Virus record (IMG/VR): IMGVR_UViG_2713896770_000016
Location: 1 to 9,136 of that record
Direction: 5' to 3' (one strand)
DNA: 9,136 nt
Source of the DNA: a virus
Taxonomy: Duplodnaviria > Heunggongvirae > Uroviricota > Caudoviricetes
How positions within the stretch are numbered: position 1 is the stretch's first letter; each line of letters begins with the position of its first letter. The notes beneath the pieces were generated by a model. That model saw only the letters and a program-made list of their open reading frames with translations. It did not search any database and had not been told where the DNA came from. Positions 1 through 9,136 of the stretch are shown here, piece after piece. A program made the position numbers and the translations under genes.

Positions 1-2138
1 TCATCGGTCATAATGGCAGACTGCGCTTCACGTGATTGCTTCAGCCACCATTTAATGGTGTCACGATCAATGACTCCGCCAGCAGTTTCCAGATCGATAG
101 TCTTACTAAATTCCGGTCCCATATCTCCGGTTTGCGGATCGAAAAATATTGCACCTATTGAGATAATCGGGGCATCAGGATTTTTTCCCATGGTTTCAAG
201 GTCGATCATTAGATGGTCACACGTCCTGCTGGTGGATGTGATAACACGATGACCGTTCACCGTAATTAAGGGATCTGCCGTCTCGCCAGTTTCACTATCG
301 CTGGCGTGATCCTGAGCGCTGCCAGCATTCTCCTTGTGTGGATGTTCAGCGCCTTCCATTTTCTCCGAATCGTCTTCCTGAACTTCAACCTGGTTCTTGT
401 CATCGAATGTTTCCTGGTATGTTGCGTCGCCCATCACCGCACCACAATCAGGGCAGTTGCCACCGCCGGTCTGACCGCAGGCGGTGCAGACTTTTTCCAC
501 TTCCTGTTGCGCCACTGGTTCAGGCTGTTTCGTTTCTGGCTCGTTTTGTAACGCATTTGGGCTGTTTTGTTCCGCTTTCTGGTCGTTCTGTTCCGTTTCT
601 TGCTGGTTCTGGTTCACAGAATCGCGGGTTTCAATCCCCTTCACCCATTTCGGATCATTCGGGTCGCTAATCCCTGCAACAAATTCACCACGTGATGCGG
701 CGAGCAACTGATTGGCGTCAGGCTGGCTGATATTGGCTGCCTGCATAATTTTGTTTACTTCGTCAGCGGTAACTTTTACCGGTTCTGGCTGTGCGGTCGT
801 GTCAGATGCACCAGTATTTTGTTGTGAACCTGAGTATGTACTGTTTTTGCGGGCGAAATATTCTTCTTTCGTGATTTCAGTAGCCCCGGCAGCCAGCGCC
901 TTATCCAGACCAGAAAGTTTGTTTGCGCGACCGTATTTTTCGCCATCCTTGTCGGTGAAGAGGAAGTAGAACGGCCCCTCACGCTCTACAGATGGTTCGA
1001 CTTCCACTTTGCATTCGGTTTTTTCGTTGTCCGGAATTGCCGTTTCCACTGCATCAGTTTCTGGTACTGGCGACGAGAGAGTATCAGTTGCGCTCTGATT
1101 TGTTCCTTCATCTTCAAACACGCCCTTTGTAGTCAGGTATTCAGTAATGTATTTGTTCAGTGCCACAGGATCTTTGTGAATGTCGATCGGACGTTCACGG
1201 ACAAGGCCAAAAATAGTCTGGCGGTCGTAGCGAAGGGCATCAGGCTGTTTGCGCATCGATGCCGAGATACGCTTCCAGTCTTCGCGGTCGTTGTCGATAA
1301 CTTCATTTTTTGCCCAGCGATGGATGCTGCCGTCAATGTTTCCGGCATCCACATCACCAGGCCAGAGAGCGTAGGCCAGTTCGTCATCCAGTGTTTTCCA
1401 TGTCTGCTTATATTCGCGACGAATGACTGCAGTGACAGGGGGGATTTTTTCTGCTGAGTTTTCAGTGTGCTGTCGGTGGACTCTGGCGCGGGCGAGATCA
1501 ACAACAGACGTGTATTTTCCGGTTTCCTTGCGTTCACCTTCGCGACGTTTTTTCCAGATGCGCATTTCTGCCTGAATTTCGGGCCATTTGGCACCAGGCT
1601 TACATTTATGCTTAACCCACCCGATGGCATGCAGCTTAAGCTCCGGATACATGGCGTTAACTTCTGGCATTTTCATCAACGCTTCAACGATATGTCCGTC
1701 GAATGTTGCCATGTCTTCCTGCAACAATTCCTGCGCGCTAATCACCATATCAACGGTGATGTTTTCACATGTGTCGAACTTAACCATGACAGCGTTCTGT
1801 ACTTCAAGGGACAGTTTGTCAAAATTGACGTTCATCGGTTCGGATTCTGGTTCGACCGGAATAAAGGAAGCGGATTCCTCATCCCAGCGGTTTTCCTGCA
1901 TATATTCGGTATCCCAGGAGTCGATAGCAGGGCGGGGCATGCCGGGTTTATCCTCGCAGATAAGAAATTTATAAGCGCAGTCCTGAGCAGCCGGATATTG
2001 CTCCAGGAATTGCCAGGTAAATTTGGCACGGGCGCGGCGTTCGTCGCCAGCTTCAATGGCAGTGGCTACAGCAACTGCACCTTCTTCCTTTATTGCCTGT
2101 TCGTCCGGAATGGCGGCGCAAATAAAGACTTTACTCAT
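1..2138 (-). CDS. recE: RecE-like exodeoxyribonuclease VIII family protein, N-terminal ~712 codons; 3' end runs off the left edge of the window
   Basis: Minus-strand frame opens at ATG 2138-2136 (MSKVFICAAIPDE...) and stayed open in the stretches hand-checked (1-300, 1440-1500, 2100-2138). It is absent from the ORF track, consistent with having no in-window stop. The plus strand over the same span holds only short, mutually tiling shadow ORFs. GAGG lies about 10 nt upstream of the ATG. An internal segment ...LLAASRGEFVAGISDPNDPKWVKGIETRD... resembles what I recall of Rac RecE. No search was run. Confidence 0.7.
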   Translation of the reverse strand, partial: MSKVFICAAIPDEQAIKEEGAVAVATAIEAGDERRARAKFTWQFLEQYPAAQDCAYKFLICEDKPGMPRPAIDSWDTEYMQENRWDEESASFIPVEPESEPMNVNFDKLSLEVQNAVMVKFDTCENITVDMVISAQELLQEDMATFDGHIVEALMKMPEVNAMYPELKLHAIGWVKHKCKPGAKWPEIQAEMRIWKKRREGERKETGKYTSVVDLARARVHRQHTENSAEKIPPVTAVIRREYKQTWKTLDDELAYALWPGDVDAGNIDGSIHRWAKNEVIDNDREDWKRISASMRKQPDALRYDRQTIFGLVRERPIDIHKDPVALNKYITEYLTTKGVFEDEGTNQSATDTLSSPVPETDAVETAIPDNEKTECKVEVEPSVEREGPFYFLFTDKDGEKYGRANKLSGLDKALAAGATEITKEEYFARKNSTYSGSQQNTGASDTTAQPEPVKVTADEVNKIMQAANISQPDANQLLAASRGEFVAGISDPNDPKWVKGIETRDSVNQNQQETEQNDQKAEQNSPNALQNEPETKQPEPVAQQEVEKVCTACGQTGGGNCPDCGAVMGDATYQETFDDKNQVEVQEDDSEKMEGAEHPHKENAGSAQDHASDSETGETADPLITVNGHRVITSTSRTCDHLMIDLETMGKNPDAPIISIGAIFFDPQTGDMGPEFSKTIDLETAGGVIDRDTIKWWLKQSREAQSAIMTD

Positions 2139-2261
2139 TTTGTTTTAACCTCATGACAGATTTAAGGATGAACAAATCCCTGCCATTGCTGGCATATAAG
2201 AATCAAATCTGATGTATTCATTAAGCTGAATGTCGTATTGTGGCAGTTATTTTATTACTGC

Positions 2262-2483
2262 TCACCATGACTCTGCTTTTACAGGTAAACCATCACGACC
2301 AAGGAAGACTTTAATCATGGTTTCCTTAATACAGTGTTGTGTGGAAAAATCACGAATATAGAGCCGTTGTTTTTTAATGTTGTTTACCGAAGCAATATAT
2401 GTTCTTCCTTTATGAATAACATAATCACCGGGAGTCACGCACTGACGAGGAATCTCATCAGTTCCGAAGTGATGAGCAATCAT
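2262..2483 (-). CDS. kilR: KilR-like small protein (73 aa), putative cell-division inhibitor
   Basis: Track ORF 2262..2495 (77 aa). The internal ATG at 2483 is preferred because GGAG sits 6 nt upstream of it, whereas the 2495 ATG has no SD. The product [22 protein letters not shown]... is 73 aa, the length of Rac KilR, and lies immediately upstream of recE-like in the same orientation. The name rests on recalled similarity, not alignment. Confidence 0.5.
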
Positions 2484-2657
2484 AATTATCTCCATTTTTA
2501 CAAATGAACTTTGTTGATGCGGTGCCTGGTGCCTCCAGGTGACGTTAACCAGTTAACAATTAACGCCGGATACAGAGAACCCACCCATAACACTGTTTTT
2601 GGTTTTAACTGTTCCGCGTGCGCTCAGCCGCATTCACCGCATCACAAAACTCACTTT

Positions 2658-2715
2658 AAAAAGGGCGGCAGACCAGTCACGGAGTAAAACTGATACCGCC
2701 AAACGTCACCAGAAA
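2658..2715 (-). ncRNA. dicF: DicF-type sRNA (prophage-encoded, ftsZ-targeting family)
   Basis: Minus strand reads TTTCTGGTGACGTTTGGCGGTATCAGTTTTACTCCGTGACTGGTCTGCCGCCC followed by TTTTT. This matches the 53-nt E. coli DicF RNA as I recall it, apart from about 1 nt. It has a GC-rich 3' stem plus U-tail and occupies the same operon position as in Qin (after the ydfC-like gene, about 175 bp before the next gene). Confidence 0.7.
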
Positions 2716-3056
2716 ATTGATAACAGAGGGCGTTGCAGCGGGGTTGTCACTTAAGCGTATGGTCAACCTGACAACCCGGTGTCCTCAACGGGGGAAGGAA
2801 TAACCCCGCCATACTTACCGCCGCGCCATTTCGCGGATTGCCACAACCGGAAGCGCACGGTCGACGAAAATTTAACGACAGGCTATCTATGAACCAGCTA
2901 CCTCGCCGTGCGCTTTCGCGTTATGGTCTGACTTTTCAGGGAAATATCCTTTCAGTAAACTGTCAGTGCCGGATGCTCACCCGTGTCCGGCGCAAGCACT
3001 CCACCTCACCCGTGGAGAACTCCTTAATTACCAACCTTAGCTTCGTTGGTTAGCTA

Positions 3057-3275
3057 TTAACGCGGGTATGTAATCATTCTGGCAATGGTTAATGCCGCTG
3101 CTTTTTCCAGATTGGTGATATCCTGCTCCAGAGAGGACAGATTTTCAGCCTGCTTAGCCCTGACTTCATTAGCCCATTTCAGATCCTGCGCTGCATTAAT
3201 TTTCTGGTGCATCCACTCATAAAGTTCATCATTGGTATAGTCTGGCGCGATGATGACGGGTTCTCGTTTCTGCAT
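3057..3275 (-). CDS. YdfC-like small prophage protein (72 aa), function unknown
   Basis: Track ORF of 72 aa with GAGG 5 nt upstream of the ATG at 3275. Its size and position (third small gene after the repressor, before dicF) match ydfC of the Qin dicB operon. The sequence looks coiled-coil-like. Identity is inferred from context and length only. Confidence 0.5.
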   Translation of the reverse strand: MQKREPVIIAPDYTNDELYEWMHQKINAAQDLKWANEVRAKQAENLSSLEQDITNLEKAAALTIARMITYPR

Positions 3276-3304
3276 ACTGATTCCTCGCGGTGCTGTTTCG
3301 CTTA

Positions 3305-3433
3305 TCAGCCATTAGATTTTGCCGAACTGGAAAGCACCTGTTTAAATTCGTTGAAGCTGTGAGCTTCTTCGCCTTCGGCAAGGCCTTCGAAGTATTCTTC
3401 GTAAGCCTTTTCCATGATTGTGTCGAAATCCAT
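3305..3433 (-). CDS. YdfB/YdaG-like small prophage protein (42 aa)
   Basis: Hand-translated MDFDTIMEKAYEEYFEGLAEGEEAHSFNEFKQVLSSSAKSNG, with stop TGA at 3307-3305. The ATG at 3433 lies 1 nt after the stop of the upstream gene, suggesting translational coupling. The 42-aa acidic product matches the ydfB/ydaG family in size. The overlapping 69-aa track ORF 3229..3438 in another frame was rejected. Confidence 0.6.
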   Translation of the reverse strand: MDFDTIMEKAYEEYFEGLAEGEEAHSFNEFKQVLSSSAKSNG

Positions 3434-3434
3434 A

Positions 3435-3590
3435 TCACCCACCTGAATTTCTTTCCAGCCAGCGACGCGCTCCAGATTCGGTTTTAAACGTTTTGCTTTT
3501 GGTATACGTCATTGCGGTGAACGTACCGTACTGGTTGGGGAACACGCCACATACCAGAGATTCGCTGTTGCCAAGATCGATAGTATCCAT
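3435..3590 (-). CDS. YdfA/YdaF-like small prophage protein (51 aa)
   Basis: Part of track ORF 3435..3671. The internal ATG at 3590 has GAGG 5 nt upstream and gives MDTIDLGNSESLVCGVFPNQYGTFTAMTYTKSKTFKTESGARRWLERNSGG (51 aa, the size of YdfA/YdaF). A 78-aa version starting at 3671 is an alternative, also with a GAGG upstream. Confidence 0.6.
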   Translation of the reverse strand: MDTIDLGNSESLVCGVFPNQYGTFTAMTYTKSKTFKTESGARRWLERNSGG

Positions 3591-3775
3591 GCTGACCTCA
3601 TTTCCCCTTAACGCCGGGGTAGCGGAACAAAAACCTGCTGCATAGTTATTAAAGTTGAACCCTGCCGTCATGTTCTTACGCCTCGGGCTGGCTACTTAAC
3701 CCCTGACCACTGCCTGGTAACTCGAAGTATTGCCCTGCATTCTGTGGGGCGGGGTGGGTTGGTATGAAAAGAAGG

Positions 3776-3814
3776 ATACCCATAGGTATTTAAAAAGTAA
3801 ATACCCATGGGTAA
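3776..3814. promoter_or_regulatory. Operator pair downstream of the repressor gene (OL-like), probable control region of the leftward early operon
   Basis: Two 14-bp dyads: ATACC-CATA-GGTAT (3776-3789) and ATACC-CATG-GGTAA (3801-3814), centres 25 bp apart. The second contains the perfect 12-bp palindrome TACCCATGGGTA. They share the half-site with the operators at 4295-4347. Confidence 0.5.
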
Positions 3815-3855
3815 ATTTTTGCGGTGTCTTAACTGGTGACTAGTTGTTTGGTGAG

Positions 3856-4275
3856 CTATGATGCGTTTTGTGCTTTCTTTTTACGGATTTCTTCGTAGAT
3901 CATATTGTAATACTGTTTTTTCTCTTCAAGAGTTTTTAATAATTTATCCGCTTCACTTTCTGGCAGTTCGTCTAAGAGATCTAAAAAAATACGTTGTCGT
4001 GGCGTTAGAACCCTTGTTTCATAACTGGAGGCTGTGTTCGTTGATGATGAAACGATACCATCCATCCATCCCCGGGGTAACCCAAAGGACTCTTCGATAA
4101 TCTCCACCATATCATCAGCGATCCGTTTTTTTCCCTTTTTCCCCTCTGGGTACAACATTCTTGATACATAAGAAGGCTCGCGCCCGATCTTTCTGGCCAC
4201 GTTAACCGCTTTACCATCGCATTTCTCATCACGAATTTTGATGAGTTGCTGTCGTCTAAATTCATATTTGTCCAT
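3856..4275 (-). CDS. Prophage repressor, DicA/RacR-like HTH protein (139 aa)
   Basis: Track ORF. The N-terminal region has an HTH-like segment GKAVNVARKIGREPSYVSRML. The C-terminal LTPRQRIFLDLLDELPESEADKLL resembles the DicA C-terminus as recalled. It is divergent from a cro-like gene and flanked by palindromic operators. No SD precedes the ATG, so the mRNA may be leaderless. Confidence 0.8.
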   Translation of the reverse strand: MDKYEFRRQQLIKIRDEKCDGKAVNVARKIGREPSYVSRMLYPEGKKGKKRIADDMVEIIEESFGLPRGWMDGIVSSSTNTASSYETRVLTPRQRIFLDLLDELPESEADKLLKTLEEKKQYYNMIYEEIRKKKAQNAS

Positions 4276-4350
4276 AGGTAAATAATAGATGCGATTACCG
4301 CAAGGTAAACAACCTGTGGGTATTGACTTTTGTTTACCTGTGGGTATTCT
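4268..4350. promoter_or_regulatory. Divergent promoter/operator region (OR-like) between the repressor and cro-like genes
   Basis: Operators TTACC-GCAA-GGTAA (4295-4308), cAACC-TGTG-GGTAT (4310-4323) and TTACC-TGTG-GGTAT (4334-4347), plus a degenerate copy over the repressor start (4268-4281). Rightward promoter candidate: -35 TTGACT 4323-4328, 16-bp spacer, -10 TATTCT 4345-4350. Leftward candidate: -35 TTTACC (complement of 4304-4309), 16-bp spacer, -10 TATTAT (complement of 4282-4287), ending about 6 nt before the repressor ATG. Confidence 0.5.
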
Positions 4351-4375
4351 TTGCTGTGTTTACTAAGGAGTAGCT

Positions 4376-4657
4376 ATGGAAGAATTAAGAATATTTCTCA
4401 ATTCTCTTTCGTCAGATGAACAGCGTATGTTTGCATGCGAGTGTGGTACCAGCATCGGTTATCTAAGAAAGGCATTGAGTAAAGGTCAAGTGTTAGGGGC
4501 ATCGTTATGTGTCCTTATTGAGCGAGCCAGTAATGGTGAAGTTACACGTCAGCAACTAAGGCCTTTTGATTGGATGAATATTTGGCCCGAGCTGGAAGAT
4601 ACCAAAACGTTAACACAACCACTTTCTAGGAGCTTGATTCATGAAAATCAAGCATGA
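4376..4657 (+). CDS. Cro-like regulator, YdaS family (93 aa)
   Basis: Track ORF with AAGGAG 5 nt upstream of the ATG. HTH-like segment CGTSIGYLRKALSKGQ...ASLCVLIERASNGEVT. It is the first gene of the rightward operon, divergent from the repressor. Confidence 0.8.
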   Translation: MEELRIFLNSLSSDEQRMFACECGTSIGYLRKALSKGQVLGASLCVLIERASNGEVTRQQLRPFDWMNIWPELEDTKTLTQPLSRSLIHENQA

Positions 4658-5066
4658 ACACATCCGCATGGCGATGAATGCCTGGGCGCGTCCTGATGGC
4701 GAAAAAGTTCCAGCAGCTGGAATAACCCAGGCTTATTTTGAGTTGGGTATGACGTTCCCAGAACTGTATGACGACAGCCATCCGGAAGCCCTGGCTCGCA
4801 ATACCCAGAAAATTTTCCGCTGGGTAGAGAAAGACACCCCTGATGCTGTTGAAAAAATGCAGGCTCTGTTACCGGCGATCGAAAAGGCGATGCCGCCTTT
4901 GCTGGTGGCCCGTATGCGCAGCCACAGTTCTGAATATTACCGTGAGATCGTCGAACGGAGGGATCGGCTGGTGAAGGATGTCGATGATTTTGTTGCGTCA
5001 GCGGTTGTTTTGTATGACCAGATGAATCGCGGCGGCCCGGCAGGGAATGCTGTGGTGATGCACTAA
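4641..5066 (+). CDS. YdaT-family protein (141 aa), CII-like position
   Basis: Track ORF with AGGAG 8 nt upstream. It starts MKIKHEHI like Rac YdaT as recalled and is about the same length. It overlaps the preceding gene by 17 nt. Confidence 0.8.
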   Translation: MKIKHEHIRMAMNAWARPDGEKVPAAGITQAYFELGMTFPELYDDSHPEALARNTQKIFRWVEKDTPDAVEKMQALLPAIEKAMPPLLVARMRSHSSEYYREIVERRDRLVKDVDDFVASAVVLYDQMNRGGPAGNAVVMH

Positions 5067-5088
5067 AAGCACGGTGTTCGGGGGTTTT

Positions 5089-6051
5089 ATGAGCAGCAAG
5101 CTTCATGGTCTTGTCTGGGAAGGGTGCGCCTTCACCGGCATGATCTTATCCAGGGTGGCGGTTATGGCCCGTCTTGCAGACTACAGCAATGACGAGGGCG
5201 TGTCATGGCCTGCCATTGAAACTATCCGGCGTCAGATCGGTGCAAGAAGTGAATCCACAGTGAAATCGGCTATTGCAGAACTGGCGAAAGAGGGCTGGCT
5301 GACGAAGGAAGAGCGTAAGGTCGGTGGGCGTAATGTAAGCAATATCTATCGGCTTAATGTGGAAAAACTCGAAGCAGCTGCGGCGGCGGCGCGTGAGTCA
5401 TATAAACCGAAAAGAAAAATTAGCCCGGCAAAAAATGACCCGTTAACAGTTGACCCGTCAAATATTGACCCCTCAACGGTTGACCCGTCAAATTTTGATG
5501 GATCAACTGTTGATAAAAAACTGCCGATTAGGGGGGCGATGATTGACCCCGATCCGTCAGTATTAAAACCTGATCCGTCAGATAAAAGATCTTCTTGTCC
5601 GGACGCTTCGCAACCGGACCCGCAGACGGCTGAACAGGATTTTTTAACCCGACACCCTGACGCGGTTGTGTTCAGTGCGAAAAAACGCCAGTGGGGAAGT
5701 CAGGAAGATTTGGTGTGCGCACAGTGGATCTGGGGACGAATCGTGAGTCTTTACGAGCAGGCGGCCAGCTATGATGGCGAGATCACTAGACCGAAAGAAC
5801 CCAACTGGACAGCATGGGCCAATGACGTTCGCACAATGCGGATGCTGGATGGCAGAACTCACAGACAAATTTGTGAAATGTTTGGGCGTCTCCAGCGGGA
5901 TTCGTTCTGGGTAAAAAACATCATGAGTCCGGCAAAACTCCGGGAAAAATGGGATGAACTGGTTATCCGCCTGGGGCGTTCGCCTGCGCAGCGTTGCGTG
6001 AATCACATTTCTGAACCGGACACTGAAATACCGCCGGGATTCAGGGGGTGA
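5089..6051 (+). CDS. Phage replication initiation protein (O-like): N-terminal winged-helix DNA-binding domain, repeat linker, DnaT-like C-terminal region
   Basis: Track ORF 5074..6051, which starts at a GTG. I prefer the in-frame ATG at 5089, preceded by a G-run, though the start is uncertain by 5 codons. The N-terminus LSRVAVMARLADYSNDEGVSWPAIETIRRQIGARSESTVKSAIAELAKEGWL is typical of phage replication-protein HTH domains. It sits directly upstream of a DnaC-like gene and carries an iteron array inside the coding sequence. Confidence 0.85.
   Translation: MSSKLHGLVWEGCAFTGMILSRVAVMARLADYSNDEGVSWPAIETIRRQIGARSESTVKSAIAELAKEGWLTKEERKVGGRNVSNIYRLNVEKLEAAAAAARESYKPKRKISPAKNDPLTVDPSNIDPSTVDPSNFDGSTVDKKLPIRGAMIDPDPSVLKPDPSDKRSSCPDASQPDPQTAEQDFLTRHPDAVVFSAKKRQWGSQEDLVCAQWIWGRIVSLYEQAASYDGEITRPKEPNWTAWANDVRTMRMLDGRTHRQICEMFGRLQRDSFWVKNIMSPAKLREKWDELVIRLGRSPAQRCVNHISEPDTEIPPGFRG
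5435..5524 (+). repeat. Iteron array (about six tandem 15-bp repeats, TTGACCCGTCAAAT-like) inside the initiator gene; putative replication origin
   Basis: Direct repeats at about 5435, 5450, 5465, 5480, 5495 and 5510, each with an internal dyad TTGAC-cc-GTCAA, followed by an A-rich tract (5513-5520). Two further related copies (GATCCGTCAG) lie at 5551-5560 and 5572-5581. In the protein they encode a DPSxx pentapeptide-repeat linker. Confidence 0.6.
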
Positions 6052-6057
6052 CGTGTC

Positions 6058-6804
6058 ATGAAAAACATTGCGGCAGTTGGGGTTCTTGAACGTATTCGCA
6101 GACTTGCACCACAGGGGTCGGTTCCACCGTACCGGACGGTGGAGGAGTGGCGGGAATGGCAACTTGCTGAAGGACGAAAACGCAGCGAGGAGATTAACCG
6201 CCAGAATCGCCAGTTGCGGGTGGAAAAAATCCTGAATCGTTCGGGCATCCAGCCTCTGCACAGCAAATGCTCGTTTGCAAATTATCAGGTGCAGAACGAC
6301 GGGCAAAAATACGCGCTGAGCCAGGCCAAATCCATAGCTGACGAACTGATGACCGGGTGCACGAATTTTGTGTTCAGTGGTAAAACCGGCACCGGGAAAA
6401 ATCACCTTGCAGCGGCGATGGGCAACCGGCTGATGGTGAAGGGGCGCAGCGTGATTATCGTCACCGTGTCTGACGTCATGAGCGTGTTGCATGACAGCTA
6501 CGACAACGGCAAATCCGGGGAAAAATTTTTACAGGAGCTTTGCGGGGTTGATTTGCTGGTCCTGGATGAAATAGGCGTTCAGCGGGAGACGAAAAACGAG
6601 CAGGTGGTATTGCACCAGATAATTGATCGCCGGACAGCATCACTGTGCAGTGTCGGGATGTTAACAAACCTGAATCATGCCGCAATGAGTACGCTTCTTG
6701 GTGAGAGGATTATGGACCGCATGACCATGAACGGTGGTCGATGGGTGACGTTTAACTGGGATAGCTGGCGTCCAAATGTCAGCAATATGAGGGTTGTGAA
6801 GTAA
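6058..6804 (+). CDS. DnaC-like helicase loader (IstB-type AAA+ ATPase), YdaV-like (248 aa)
   Basis: Track ORF with AGGGGG about 9 nt upstream. Walker A motif FSGKTGTGKNHLAAA and Walker B motif LLVLDEIG. Same length as Rac YdaV as recalled. Confidence 0.9.
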   Translation: MKNIAAVGVLERIRRLAPQGSVPPYRTVEEWREWQLAEGRKRSEEINRQNRQLRVEKILNRSGIQPLHSKCSFANYQVQNDGQKYALSQAKSIADELMTGCTNFVFSGKTGTGKNHLAAAMGNRLMVKGRSVIIVTVSDVMSVLHDSYDNGKSGEKFLQELCGVDLLVLDEIGVQRETKNEQVVLHQIIDRRTASLCSVGMLTNLNHAAMSTLLGERIMDRMTMNGGRWVTFNWDSWRPNVSNMRVVK

Positions 6805-6825
6805 TTTTGTCCGGAGGAAATTTTA

Positions 6826-7596
6826 ATGGAAACCGTATCTGACGCACTGAAAGCACTGAAAAAAGCCTCTTCACATGTGGTGGCAGCTCGCCTTGGAATC
6901 AGTCGTGAAGAGGCTGTCAACGAGCTGTGGGAACTCAAAAGAAAAGGCGTCGTTGATAAAACTGGTCACACCTGGTTTCTGGCTGGCGAAGGTGAATCCC
7001 GGGTAACCGAAGAGCGGCCAGTAAAATCTGAAGCACAGGATATGCTGACCGGGGAGGTCGAACAAAAAGTTACCGCAGACATGATGATTGAGTTTATCGG
7101 TCAGGATGGGGCTAAAACGTGTGAGGAACTGGCGGGTAAGTTCGGTGTCAGTACTCGCAAGGTTGCTTCCACGCTGGCGGTGGTAACCGCAACGGGGCGG
7201 CTGGCACGCGTTAATCAGAACGGTAAATTTCGTTACTGCATGCCGGGCGATAATTTACCAGCAGAGCCGAAAGCCGCGCTGGTAACGGAAAGTGATGGTA
7301 AGGCCTTTCCTCAGCCAGCAGGTGCTGCGTTACCAGTCCGGGAAGCCGCAACACAGGAAGAAATTAAAACAGAAACTGTGGCGGACATTGTGCAGCCGTT
7401 GCCATCGTTTACCGAAACGCAAGCAGATGAGCTGATTTTTCCGTCCCTTCGCAGGGCAAACCTGGCGCTGCGCAGGGCGAAAAGTGATGTTCAGAAGTGG
7501 GAGCGAGTCTGCGCCGCGCTGCGGGAGCTGAACAAGCACCGGGATATTGTTCGACAGATTACTGATTCTTCCCGCCGTGTTGTATCGGAAAAGTGA
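6826..7596 (+). CDS. Hypothetical protein (256 aa) with two winged-helix-like modules
   Basis: Track ORF with GGAGG 8 nt upstream. Internally duplicated 50-60 aa segments (residues about 1-55 and 83-140) of the pattern hydrophobic-x-x-L-x-x-x-G-[IV]-S-x-x-x-[VA]. The C-terminal third is basic and helical. No family was recognised with certainty. Confidence 0.7.
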   Translation: METVSDALKALKKASSHVVAARLGISREEAVNELWELKRKGVVDKTGHTWFLAGEGESRVTEERPVKSEAQDMLTGEVEQKVTADMMIEFIGQDGAKTCEELAGKFGVSTRKVASTLAVVTATGRLARVNQNGKFRYCMPGDNLPAEPKAALVTESDGKAFPQPAGAALPVREAATQEEIKTETVADIVQPLPSFTETQADELIFPSLRRANLALRRAKSDVQKWERVCAALRELNKHRDIVRQITDSSRRVVSEK

Positions 7597-7611
7597 TTGC
7601 CGGAGGCGCTT

Positions 7612-8037
7612 ATGGCAAAAGTATTTACACAAGAAGAGCGGGAAAAAATTAAAGGGCAGGTTGTTGAACTTGTACGTCTGAGCGGTCGCGAGACGTTGCG
7701 GCAACTGGAAGCCAAGACAGGTGCGACAAGATATCTGATGAGTGTTCTCGCCAGAGAGCTGGTTGCCAGTGGCGATGTATACAACTCTGGTTACGGGTTA
7801 TTCCCGTCTGAACAGGCGCGTAAGGACTGGCAAAATGCTCGCAAAAAACTCTCAAGGGCAAAGGTGAAGAAACCTGCAGTGGTTGATCCGGACCTTATCT
7901 GGTCGTTACCAGACGGCGAAATACGCCGCTACGACAGGCGCCTGAATATAATCTGTCGCGAGTGCCGGAAGAGCGAAGCTATGCAGCGTGTACTGGCATT
8001 TTATCAAGGAAATGTTAGGTATTTTAGACGTTACTAG
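7612..8037 (+). CDS. Hypothetical protein (141 aa), N-terminal winged-helix-like module, C-terminal basic region
   Basis: Track ORF 7597..8037 begins at a TTG. I prefer the ATG at 7612, which has GGAGG 5 nt upstream. It starts 16 nt after the stop of the previous gene. The N-terminus resembles the modules of the preceding protein. Confidence 0.7.
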   Translation: MAKVFTQEEREKIKGQVVELVRLSGRETLRQLEAKTGATRYLMSVLARELVASGDVYNSGYGLFPSEQARKDWQNARKKLSRAKVKKPAVVDPDLIWSLPDGEIRRYDRRLNIICRECRKSEAMQRVLAFYQGNVRYFRRY

Positions 8038-8190
8038 ATTAAAGAGCATTAGTTCAGATGTGAATTGACATTTTCATGGCGCAGGGTAGAGCCAGCGTGG
8101 TTGTCCGCTTTGCGTCAAAACCAGATATTACCAGATTTAGACATATATTCCCGATAGCCCTGCTCTGATGCTACACTCTGTGCTATTTTC

Positions 8191-8877
8191 ATGACCCCAA
8201 TAAAAATATTTATGACTATTGCTGATTTCAAACGGCCTAAATTGGAGCTCCCAAACGGGGCAAACAAACTACTACTGCACTCTTGCTGTGCTCCATGTTC
8301 CGGTGAAGTGATGGAGGCGCTTCAGGCCTCGGGAATCGACTACACCATCTTTTTCTACAACCCGAACATTCATCCTCAGAAAGAGTATTTAATTCGTAAG
8401 GATGAAAATATTCGCTTTGCTGAACAACACGGCGTGCCGTTTATCGATGCTGATTACGACACCGACAACTGGTTTGAACGTGCCAAAGGAATGGAATGGG
8501 AGCCTGAGAGGGGGATCCGTTGTACCATGTGTTTTGACATGCGTTTTGAGCGGACAGCGTTGTACGCTGCTGAAAATGGTTTCAGTGTGATCAGCAGTTC
8601 ACTGGGCATTTCACGCTGGAAAAATATGCAGCAGGTTAACGAGTGTGGGCGGCGAGCTGTTGCGCATTATCCGGGTATGGTGTACTGGGATTATAACTGG
8701 CGCAAGCAGGGCGGCTCGTCCCGTATGATTGAAATCAGCAAGCGCGAAAAATTCTATCAGCAGGAATATTGTGGCTGTGTGTATTCTCTGCGCGATACCA
8801 ATCTACACCGCAAATCTCAGGGACGCCCTCTTATCAAAATTGGCCAACTCCACTACGGAAAAGAAGAGAAGGAGTGA
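8191..8877 (+). CDS. QueH-like (DUF208-type) putative Fe-S protein, possible epoxyqueuosine reductase homologue (228 aa)
   Basis: Track ORF. N-terminal [12 protein letters not shown] followed by FFYNPNIHP, and later RCTMC and EYCGCVYS cysteine motifs. I recognise this pattern as DUF208/QueH, not confirmed by search. It follows a 153-bp intergenic region with extended -10-like TGcTACACT (8169-8177) and TGcTATTTT (8181-8189). No SD precedes the ATG. Confidence 0.75.
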
Positions 8878-9136
8878 TTTTATGGATCACCTTTCTGATT
8901 GATTTCATATTGGCGAGGTGACGTGAGTTAAGTAGAATGGCTGCGGGTGCTTGAGGCTATCTGTCTCAGGCATGAACACTGAAAGGCAGATAGAGAAAAG
9001 CCCCAGTTAACATTTCGCGTCCTGCAAGACGCTTAACATTAATCTGAGGCCCAATCTATGTCTCACAAATGTAGGTTAGCCTCTTACGTGCCGAAAGGCA
9101 AGGGGAAGCAGGCTATTGTTAACACCAAGCTGTAAT

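Follow-up and report, generated by a model that had tools for sequence, protein, structure and literature searches.

What does a lambdoid prophage contribute by carrying an enzyme for the last, transfer RNA (tRNA)-specific step of queuosine (Q) synthesis, in a host that already has an enzyme for the same reaction? The question is raised by a 9,136-nucleotide (nt) stretch of viral DNA (Caudoviricetes; IMG/VR record IMGVR_UViG_2713896770_000016, positions 1 to 9,136), hereafter the window, near the right end of which an open reading frame (ORF) on the + strand (8191–8877, 228 amino acids counted from the first ATG) contains the motifs CCxPC and YNPNIHP. An earlier, sequence-only reading had taken this ORF for an epoxyqueuosine reductase of the DUF208/QueH type carried as prophage cargo, and the ORF and its CCxPC and NPNIHP motifs are present as it described. 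Our answer, to which we assign a probability of about 0.7, is that the gene, queH, encodes a functional QueH, a host-derived cargo enzyme that would convert epoxyqueuosine (oQ) to Q independently of cobalamin (vitamin B12).

The queH product is an intact QueH

The profile search that the sequence-only reading had suggested gave a full-length match to the Pfam family QueH (PF02677, DUF208, IPR003828), with an E value of 1.1e-65 and 221.5 bits, against a gathering cut-off of 23.5 bits, over profile positions 1–174 of 175. No Pfam family other than PF02677 matched the product. It also aligns with the QueH of Thermotoga maritima (TmQueH, 7lc5) over residues 27–203 (E 7.8e-22, 33% identity).

The product has the full seven-cysteine set of the family, C32, C33, C36, C111, C114, C194 and C196, in the pattern CCxPC ... 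CxxC ... CGC. Each of these positions is Cys in 62–84 rows of an 87-row alignment (85 diverse representatives, the query and TmQueH), and C32, C33, C111, C114, C194 and C196 are unchanged across the queH product, its orthologues and TmQueH. Opposite C36, TmQueH has Asp13. Because this column is Cys in 71 of the 77 ungapped diverse homologues, CCxPC is the family norm and the T. maritima enzyme the exception. The set is ascribed to an Fe-S cluster and an adjacent metal, a metal-binding role reportedly described by Li et al. in 2021.

The predicted fold agrees with the family assignment. An AlphaFold2 model, built from a 27-sequence alignment, retrieved the five TmQueH entries as its five best matches in the Protein Data Bank (PDB; E 4e-11 to 3e-10, target-normalised template-modelling (TM) scores 0.80–0.86). 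Against 7lc5, 7lc7 and 9deu the scores were 0.82–0.86, with root-mean-square deviations of 2.5–2.9 Å, and other folds (TtuA, LarE) followed at E 5e-5 or weaker. By family, metal-ligand residues and predicted fold, the queH ORF is thus an intact, full-length QueH. RefSeq already gives the prophage gene this name (WP_000150294.1). In PHROGs, phrog_3217 is the QueH family (E 1.7e-138) and is labelled ‘unknown function’; its profile begins at residue 34, which suggests truncated gene calls in phage annotations. Family 3217 can now be named QueH.

QueH genes are said to complement an E. coli queG mutant, in work by Zallot et al. in 2017. QueH, an iron-sulfur enzyme, needs no cobalamin to turn the oQ34 epoxide of tRNA-Asp, -Asn, -His and -Tyr into the cyclopentenediol of Q34 (PMC5615194, PMC13443448). 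The prophage protein shares 75–92% identity with chromosomal orthologues named QueH, and by this likeness it would likewise reduce oQ34-tRNA without the cofactor.

queH lies within complete prophages

The window is 100% identical to DNA of the bovine strain E. coli F2_407_2_2 (NZ_CP074756), in which the surroundings of queH can be followed on both sides. To the left are potC, integrase, excisionase, exonuclease, kil, ydfC, repressor, cro-like and YdaT genes; the series continues with O-like, DnaC-like, DUF1627, DUF977, queH, hokD, DUF968, RusA and Q, and further right come lysis genes and then terminase, portal, capsid/head and tail genes. The integrase gene is ~9 kb to the left of queH and phage genes occupy more than 20 kb to its right. 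queH is therefore situated ~10 kb within a complete, lambda-like prophage integrated at potC, where the DUF977 gene and hok/sok flank it.

The same module is found in strain 4/1-1, in a prophage adjoining ompW, and diverged queH alleles (90–97% DNA identity) follow the DUF977 gene in three further prophages. The queH prophage of LH10-b-1 adjoins rspB at the Qin site and that of WL164 adjoins ttcA at the Rac site; in strain 7/2 it has Qin-type genes (relBE, hokD, ydfU, ydfT) and its attachment site was not seen. Prophage queH thus occurs at four attachment sites, namely potC, ompW, the Qin site (rspB) and the Rac site (ttcA). The DUF977 gene closes the conserved replication-side block, and queH follows it directly in each of the five annotated E. 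coli prophages examined, as it does in HannyBb, an isolated phage.

These arrangements decide between two proposals of the sequence-only reading. The first, that queH is cargo inside the prophage, after the replication module and in the same orientation, holds in both NZ_CP074756 and 4/1-1. The second placed a prophage/chromosome boundary at 8038–8190 and made queH a conserved chromosomal gene. It could draw on the non-coding gap, on a dip in G+C (0.42–0.47) around 8000–8400, and on the chromosomal location of the closest non-E. coli homologues. However, phage genes continue to the right in both strains, for more than 20 kb from hokD, DUF968, RusA and Q through the lysis, terminase, head and tail genes in NZ_CP074756; ~82% of E. 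coli genomes lack the gene, and its prophage copies stand at four different chromosomal sites. This second proposal is refuted.

A mobile cassette kept under purifying selection

Comparison of the window with other queH-bearing DNA delimits what moves (coordinates are those of the window):

8098–8890, + strand: mobile queH cassette, comprising the promoter region, the gene and ~12 nt past the stop; the largest shared extent (~0.8 kb)
~8098 to ~8890: homology to phage HannyBb (DNA identity not computed)
8116–8881: homology to a Salmonella IncFII plasmid, 90%
8147–8884: homology to a Klebsiella IncFII/IncR plasmid, 83%
8162–8881: homology to the Scandinavium chromosome, 84%

Because the shared extents end at these points, the mobile unit is the promoter region plus the gene alone. 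Its ragged left edge fits repeated recombination, rather than a site-specific cassette system.

The cassette was matched in 995 of 5426 complete E. coli genomes (18%), nearly always in single copy, and at least 80% of it is covered in 984 of these 995 copies. queG, by comparison, is present in 5426 of 5426 and is intact in the lysogen 4/1-1. Among phages, HannyBb (an isolated phage with a complete 45-kb genome) encodes a QueH at 95% amino-acid identity, annotated ‘hypothetical protein’, and at least 189 IMG/VR viral contigs encode a relative, the best 80 being identical in protein sequence. In PLSDB, QueH homologues were found on 302 plasmids (99 from Klebsiella, 67 from Escherichia), of which 136 are typed as conjugative. 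IncF-type plasmids from Klebsiella, Salmonella and E. coli (L098, L099, L100) carry the cassette itself. In three plasmid contexts a lone queH adjoins insertion sequence (IS) elements, fec iron-uptake genes or defence genes; the neighbours on one Klebsiella plasmid include CBASS-like, NACHT and dGTPase genes.

Records in the GenBank phage collection call for more caution, since only HannyBb is clearly phage among the 25 that matched. The long human-faecal contig MT835504.1 (‘UNVERIFIED: Bacteriophage sp.’, L182) encodes glycogen synthase, ABC transporter, argininosuccinate lyase and topoisomerase domains and was rejected as bacterial chromosomal DNA. Other short or unannotated records, as well as the 328–378-kb ‘Acinetobacter phage’ records, were left out as evidence for phage-borne QueH. 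Comparable short records of the phage collection should not be counted as such.

Among five prophage and phage alleles, dN/dS (the ratio of nonsynonymous to synonymous divergence; Nei–Gojobori) is 0.044–0.094 at dS of 0.03–0.45, so queH has been kept functional while diverging inside mobile elements. The metal-ligand cysteines are intact in every allele examined, and the cassette is kept even in decayed prophages with IS elements and truncated genes.

Chromosomal relatives

The nearest homologues outside Escherichia (75–92% identical) are the chromosomal QueH of Scandinavium, Kluyvera, Enterobacter, Erwinia, Providencia and Photorhabdus. The Providencia queH has housekeeping genes around it that encode TmcA, SAICAR-synthase, BamC and DHDPS domains, and the remaining chromosomal contexts examined are likewise non-phage. 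Of 80 species-representative queH loci compared by tblastn with the phage proteins of the window, only that of E. albertii had phage neighbours. The closest chromosomal copies, which belong to Enterobacteriaceae proper (Scandinavium, Kluyvera, Enterobacter), have no common flanks and share only queH itself, so that the donor locus could not be named; in these three genera, too, queH behaves as a single-gene island.

One Enterobacter copy has a setting of its own. In Enterobacter sp. ECC-175 (L022, NZ_CP143776, 3677–6669), a lone queH is ~1 kb downstream of an ORF which, by eye, we take to be icd. The icd gene is an attachment site for e14-type elements, and the ECC-175 copy may be a mobile-element remnant.

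Start codon and putative promoter

The predicted expression signals ahead of the gene are as follows:

8148–8153, + strand: weak -35-like TTCCCG, upstream of the extended -10
8169–8177, + strand: extended -10 element TGCTACACT (TGcTACACT) of the form TGnTAnnnT, hexamer at 8172–8177
8191–8211, + strand: in-frame upstream ATG and 7 codons, most likely 5' leader and not coding
8212–8877, + strand: queH coding sequence with the preferred start, 221 amino acids plus stop; epoxyqueuosine reductase QueH, RefSeq coding sequence WP_000150294.1

The sequence-only reading had counted 228 residues from ATG 8191. RefSeq places the start of WP_000150294.1 at ATG 8212, and the N-termini of orthologues, chromosomal ones included, align to M8 of the 228-residue ORF, which is the same codon. 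The seven residues ahead of M8 differ in HannyBb (MNLINTF versus MTPIKIF), and ATG 8191 is missing from L015, which is the allele at the Rac site, from L099, carried by a Salmonella plasmid, and from L019, on the Scandinavium chromosome. The start is thus most likely ATG 8212, giving 221 residues, rather than 8191.

The 153-bp spacer (8038–8190) does carry an extended -10-like element and lacks a Shine–Dalgarno (SD) sequence, as had been noted. From the position of TGCTACACT, transcription is predicted to start at ~8183–8186 (near 8184). A start near 8184 would leave an A/U-rich, SD-less leader of ~27 nt to ATG 8212, and hence a short-leadered messenger RNA (mRNA), not a leaderless one; the ‘nearly leaderless’ transcript proposed earlier holds only for ATG 8191, which is probably unused.

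The case for this promoter is comparative. In the window, where it is at -43, and in E. albertii, Scandinavium, Kluyvera, Symbiopectobacterium and two of four Enterobacter loci, the motif TGCTACA[A/C]T stands at -42 to -45 relative to the start codon; the remaining two Enterobacter loci read TGCTACCCT at that distance. The flanks around the motif-bearing copies are unrelated to one another. Among 40 Enterobacterales queH upstream regions, 15 have TGnTAnnnT between -55 and -25, against 1.8 expected from shuffles, and an extended -10 also precedes the plasmid copies. Chromosomal queH orthologues resemble the prophage copy in this upstream motif and in having no SD.

Two other candidate signals were set aside: a reverse-strand promoter match at 8231–8203, which is within chance (2 found, 1.8 expected), and a Fur box upstream of queH, which by eye has 9 of 19 consensus matches and was not taken as meaningful. 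No riboswitch or other Rfam RNA was found upstream of queH at gathering or relaxed thresholds, the only Rfam matches in the window being sok and DicF. About 30 bp upstream of the -35 region, at 8120–8139 (+), is a tandem direct repeat, ACCAGATATT / ACCAGATTTA, which HannyBb and the Salmonella IncFII plasmid copy share and the chromosomal orthologues lack; it may serve as a regulator site, or may be meaningless. In the plasmid copy L100, an inverted repeat seen by eye in the printed sequence just past the stop is a possible terminator-like hairpin.

Proposed role and alternative explanations

We propose that queH was captured alone, along with the extended -10 promoter native to it, from an Enterobacterales chromosome, and that the resulting ~0.8-kb cassette now moves in the lambdoid variable slot after the DUF977 gene and also on IncF-type plasmids. 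In a lysogen, transcription of queH would begin at its own promoter and would not depend on the phage repressor; after induction, it would also be transcribed with the early-right operon. The prophage QueH would act on the host tRNA pool. E. coli is unable to make cobalamin de novo. QueG, which every E. coli has, requires cobalamin plus Fe-S clusters (PMC4646009, citing Frey 1988). Given these two constraints, the cassette would let the cell finish Q when B12 is absent. As plasmids carry the same cassette, the benefit is argued to be for the cell and not for virion production, and retention in decayed prophages counts in the same direction. queH is thus a probable lysogenic-conversion or auxiliary gene, a host-derived tRNA-modification enzyme.

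Several observations weigh against a functional, cell-serving QueH. On inspection, no SD precedes either ATG 8191 or ATG 8212. The -35 match, TTCCCG, is weak, and a -35/-10 consensus scan, which needs a good -35, found no + strand promoter in the spacer 8038–8190; the promoter call therefore rests on comparative conservation. This conservation is itself not absolute, because the E. coli allele L013 reads TGCCACACT, with C at the first -10 position. A scan of 7800–9136 found no terminator-like site, including after queH. The AlphaFold2 model is of moderate confidence (mean predicted local distance difference test score 73, predicted TM score 0.76), and an NCBIfam search of the product gave no match. 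No phenotype known to us distinguishes E. coli with oQ-tRNA from E. coli with Q-tRNA, which makes the proposed benefit hypothetical. Lastly, a low dN/dS is also expected under selection on lytic growth only.

This last point leads to the possibility that queH serves the lytic cycle: expressed after induction or infection, mainly from the early-right promoter pR, it would turn oQ-tRNA into Q-tRNA in favour of phage translation, and the lysogen would gain nothing. The gene is indeed downstream of the replication genes in the same orientation, with no terminator-like site between or after, it is present in the complete genome of an isolated phage, HannyBb, and strong purifying selection could arise from selection on the phage. 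However, plasmids, which have no lytic cycle, carry the cassette with the same promoter motif; decayed prophages retain the gene; and the conserved extended -10 came along from chromosomal orthologues. We also reason that tRNA turnover is slow relative to a lytic cycle, and consider a purely lytic role unlikely.

A different substrate, such as a modified DNA base or a small-molecule epoxide, or a part in defence or counter-defence, seems very unlikely to us. It is suggested by the company the gene keeps, namely a complete Kiwa system (KwaA and KwaB) directly downstream in strain 7/2 and the CBASS-like, NACHT and dGTPase neighbours on the Klebsiella plasmid, and by the listing of phrog_3217 as unknown function. 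Nevertheless, 75–92% identity to chromosomal QueH leaves little room for a change of function, PADLOC gave no match to QueH at E values up to 0.01, the prophage has no annotated DpdA/Tgt or preQ0 genes, and neighbours that vary (hokD, IS1, DUF1971, fec) fit a cargo hot spot, not an operon. Less credible still is a neutral hitch-hiker, a captured host gene that spreads with prophages and plasmids and has no current function. Its full redundancy with the universal queG, the want of a known oQ-versus-Q phenotype and the missing SD and terminator are what such a gene might present. Against this stand a dN/dS of ~0.05 over dS up to 0.45 in the mobile-element lineage, metal-ligand cysteines intact in all alleles examined, coverage of at least 80% of the cassette in 984 of 995 E. 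coli copies, and its survival in prophages that lost many other genes.

If queH is functional host-serving cargo, it would add a tRNA-modification enzyme to the genes of lysogenic conversion. About one in five E. coli genomes has a prophage queH, always alongside the B12-dependent host enzyme and under strong purifying selection, and whether Q versus oQ affects fitness under cobalamin scarcity thereby becomes testable. A bolder extension, which we think quite improbable, is that queH is a recurrently selected mobile trait in QueG-encoding Enterobacteriaceae, and that whether tRNA bears oQ or Q has consequences in niches short of B12 or when mobile elements are in conflict. The gene might then, for example, offset the loss of B12 uptake after BtuB-targeting phages or colicins have selected btuB mutants, or else alter sensitivity to anticodon-targeting toxins; either would be the first physiological role for the final, seemingly cosmetic step of queuosine synthesis.

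Comparison with known systems

The prophage enzyme and chromosomal QueH (TmQueH 7lc5, 7lc7 and 9deu; Providencia, Scandinavium, Erwinia) have the same full-length domain, cysteine set and predicted fold, apart from the Asp that T. maritima has where the prophage QueH and most of the family have Cys36. Unlike its chromosomal counterparts, the gene is borne by prophages and plasmids, in a species with QueG in every genome, and is unlinked to other que genes. QueG (YjeS) carries out the same reaction, oQ34 to Q34 in tRNA, and coexists with queH in the lysogen; its fold and cofactor are unrelated to those of QueH, and it is core and chromosomal (5426/5426) where queH is accessory (995/5426). The two have been described as isofunctional and non-orthologous (PMC5372724), and Staphylococcus aureus has both, expressed differently (PMC9894224, PMC13443448). 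A second Q-pathway enzyme that spares a scarce cofactor is also known in the low-zinc paralogue QueD2. Unlike such backups, queH is supplied by mobile elements and is not a regulated chromosomal paralogue, and no Rfam element lies upstream of it.

Phage-borne queuosine-pathway genes have so far been linked to DNA modification. The phage 7-deazaguanine clusters (DpdA with FolE, QueD, QueE and QueC) put preQ0-derived bases into phage DNA and do so without QueA, QueG or QueH (PMC6884629). In contrast, the lambdoid prophages here have the last, tRNA-specific step only. The sequence-only reading had advised looking further right for such genes; queC/D/E, folE, tgt and dpdA are not annotated in either of two complete prophages (NZ_CP074756 and 4/1-1). 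It had also called an epoxyqueuosine reductase unusual for phages. This fits the virus survey of Hutinet et al. 2019, in which no QueA, QueG or QueH was found in the viruses analysed (PMC6884629), but not its frequency in E. coli prophages, where the gene is common and already named QueH in RefSeq. We found no treatment of queH as E. coli prophage or plasmid cargo in the searchable literature; the enzyme family is known, and its spread on prophages and plasmids is under-reported.

In its layout queH resembles the lambdoid morons found between the replication genes and Q (hokD/relBE, Kiwa): a single gene with a promoter-like element and lower G+C, lying amid conserved phage genes and found in some related phages but not in others. 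The slot is moron-like as well, in that its content differs among related prophages, with hokD, KwaAB, IS1 and a methyltransferase fragment as neighbours. Unlike the usual morons, the cargo is a housekeeping tRNA-modification enzyme, not a toxin, defence or surface protein, and has no terminator-like site that we could find.

The cargo slot and other features of the window

The cassette is framed in the window by the following:

7597–8037, + strand: DUF977 / Ren-like (LygF) gene, the left neighbour of queH (Pfam DUF977, E 7e-28; PHROG 142 ‘Ren-like exclusion protein’)
8038–8097, no strand: junction segment from the DUF977 stop to the shared cassette, not common to HannyBb
8945–9117, + strand: match to the sok RNA model in the hok/sok type I toxin-antitoxin locus, the right neighbour of queH (Rfam RF01794, 115.6 bits, E 2e-26)

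Phages without queH (vB_EcoS-683R6, Rac-SA53) have DUF977, and their homology to the window ends at ~8006–8019. The position of the junction segment is occupied by part of a methyltransferase gene in L014 and HannyBb, and by an additional reverse-strand ORF in L015. To the right, the neighbour of queH is hokD, a Kiwa KwaA–KwaB pair, IS1 or a DUF1971 gene, depending on the prophage. The slot after DUF977–queH is a cargo and defence hot spot. In the window, a complete hok/sok locus (8910–9136, +) comes directly after the cassette. The hokD coding sequence annotated by RefSeq begins at 9115 and continues past the end of the window, and a promoter-like TTGGCG-17-TAGAAT at 8910–8938 precedes hok/sok. 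Because no terminator was found after queH, its transcripts may read into hok/sok.

The Kiwa system of strain 7/2 (L013 9989–11628, NZ_CP023820) is complete and lies directly downstream of queH; PADLOC matched KwaA at E 1e-101 and KwaB at E 3e-159, and RefSeq labels KwaA ‘hypothetical’. On the other side of queH, the DUF1627 and DUF977 genes form a pair (6826–8037, +) after the DnaC-like gene, and both products have weak winged-helix/helix-turn-helix matches.

Further left, the antisense small RNA DicF is encoded at 2663–2714 (-) in the ydfC/kil region (Rfam RF00039, 74.2 bits, E 2e-15), with a truncated dicB and a Rac-type kil gene (2262–2483, -) as neighbours. Within the O-like gene (5074–6051), at least four repeats spaced at 15 bp (TTGACCCGTC) occupy 5415–5489 (+) and encode a repetitive DPS/VDPS peptide stretch; they look like lambda-style origin iterons in a replication-initiator gene.

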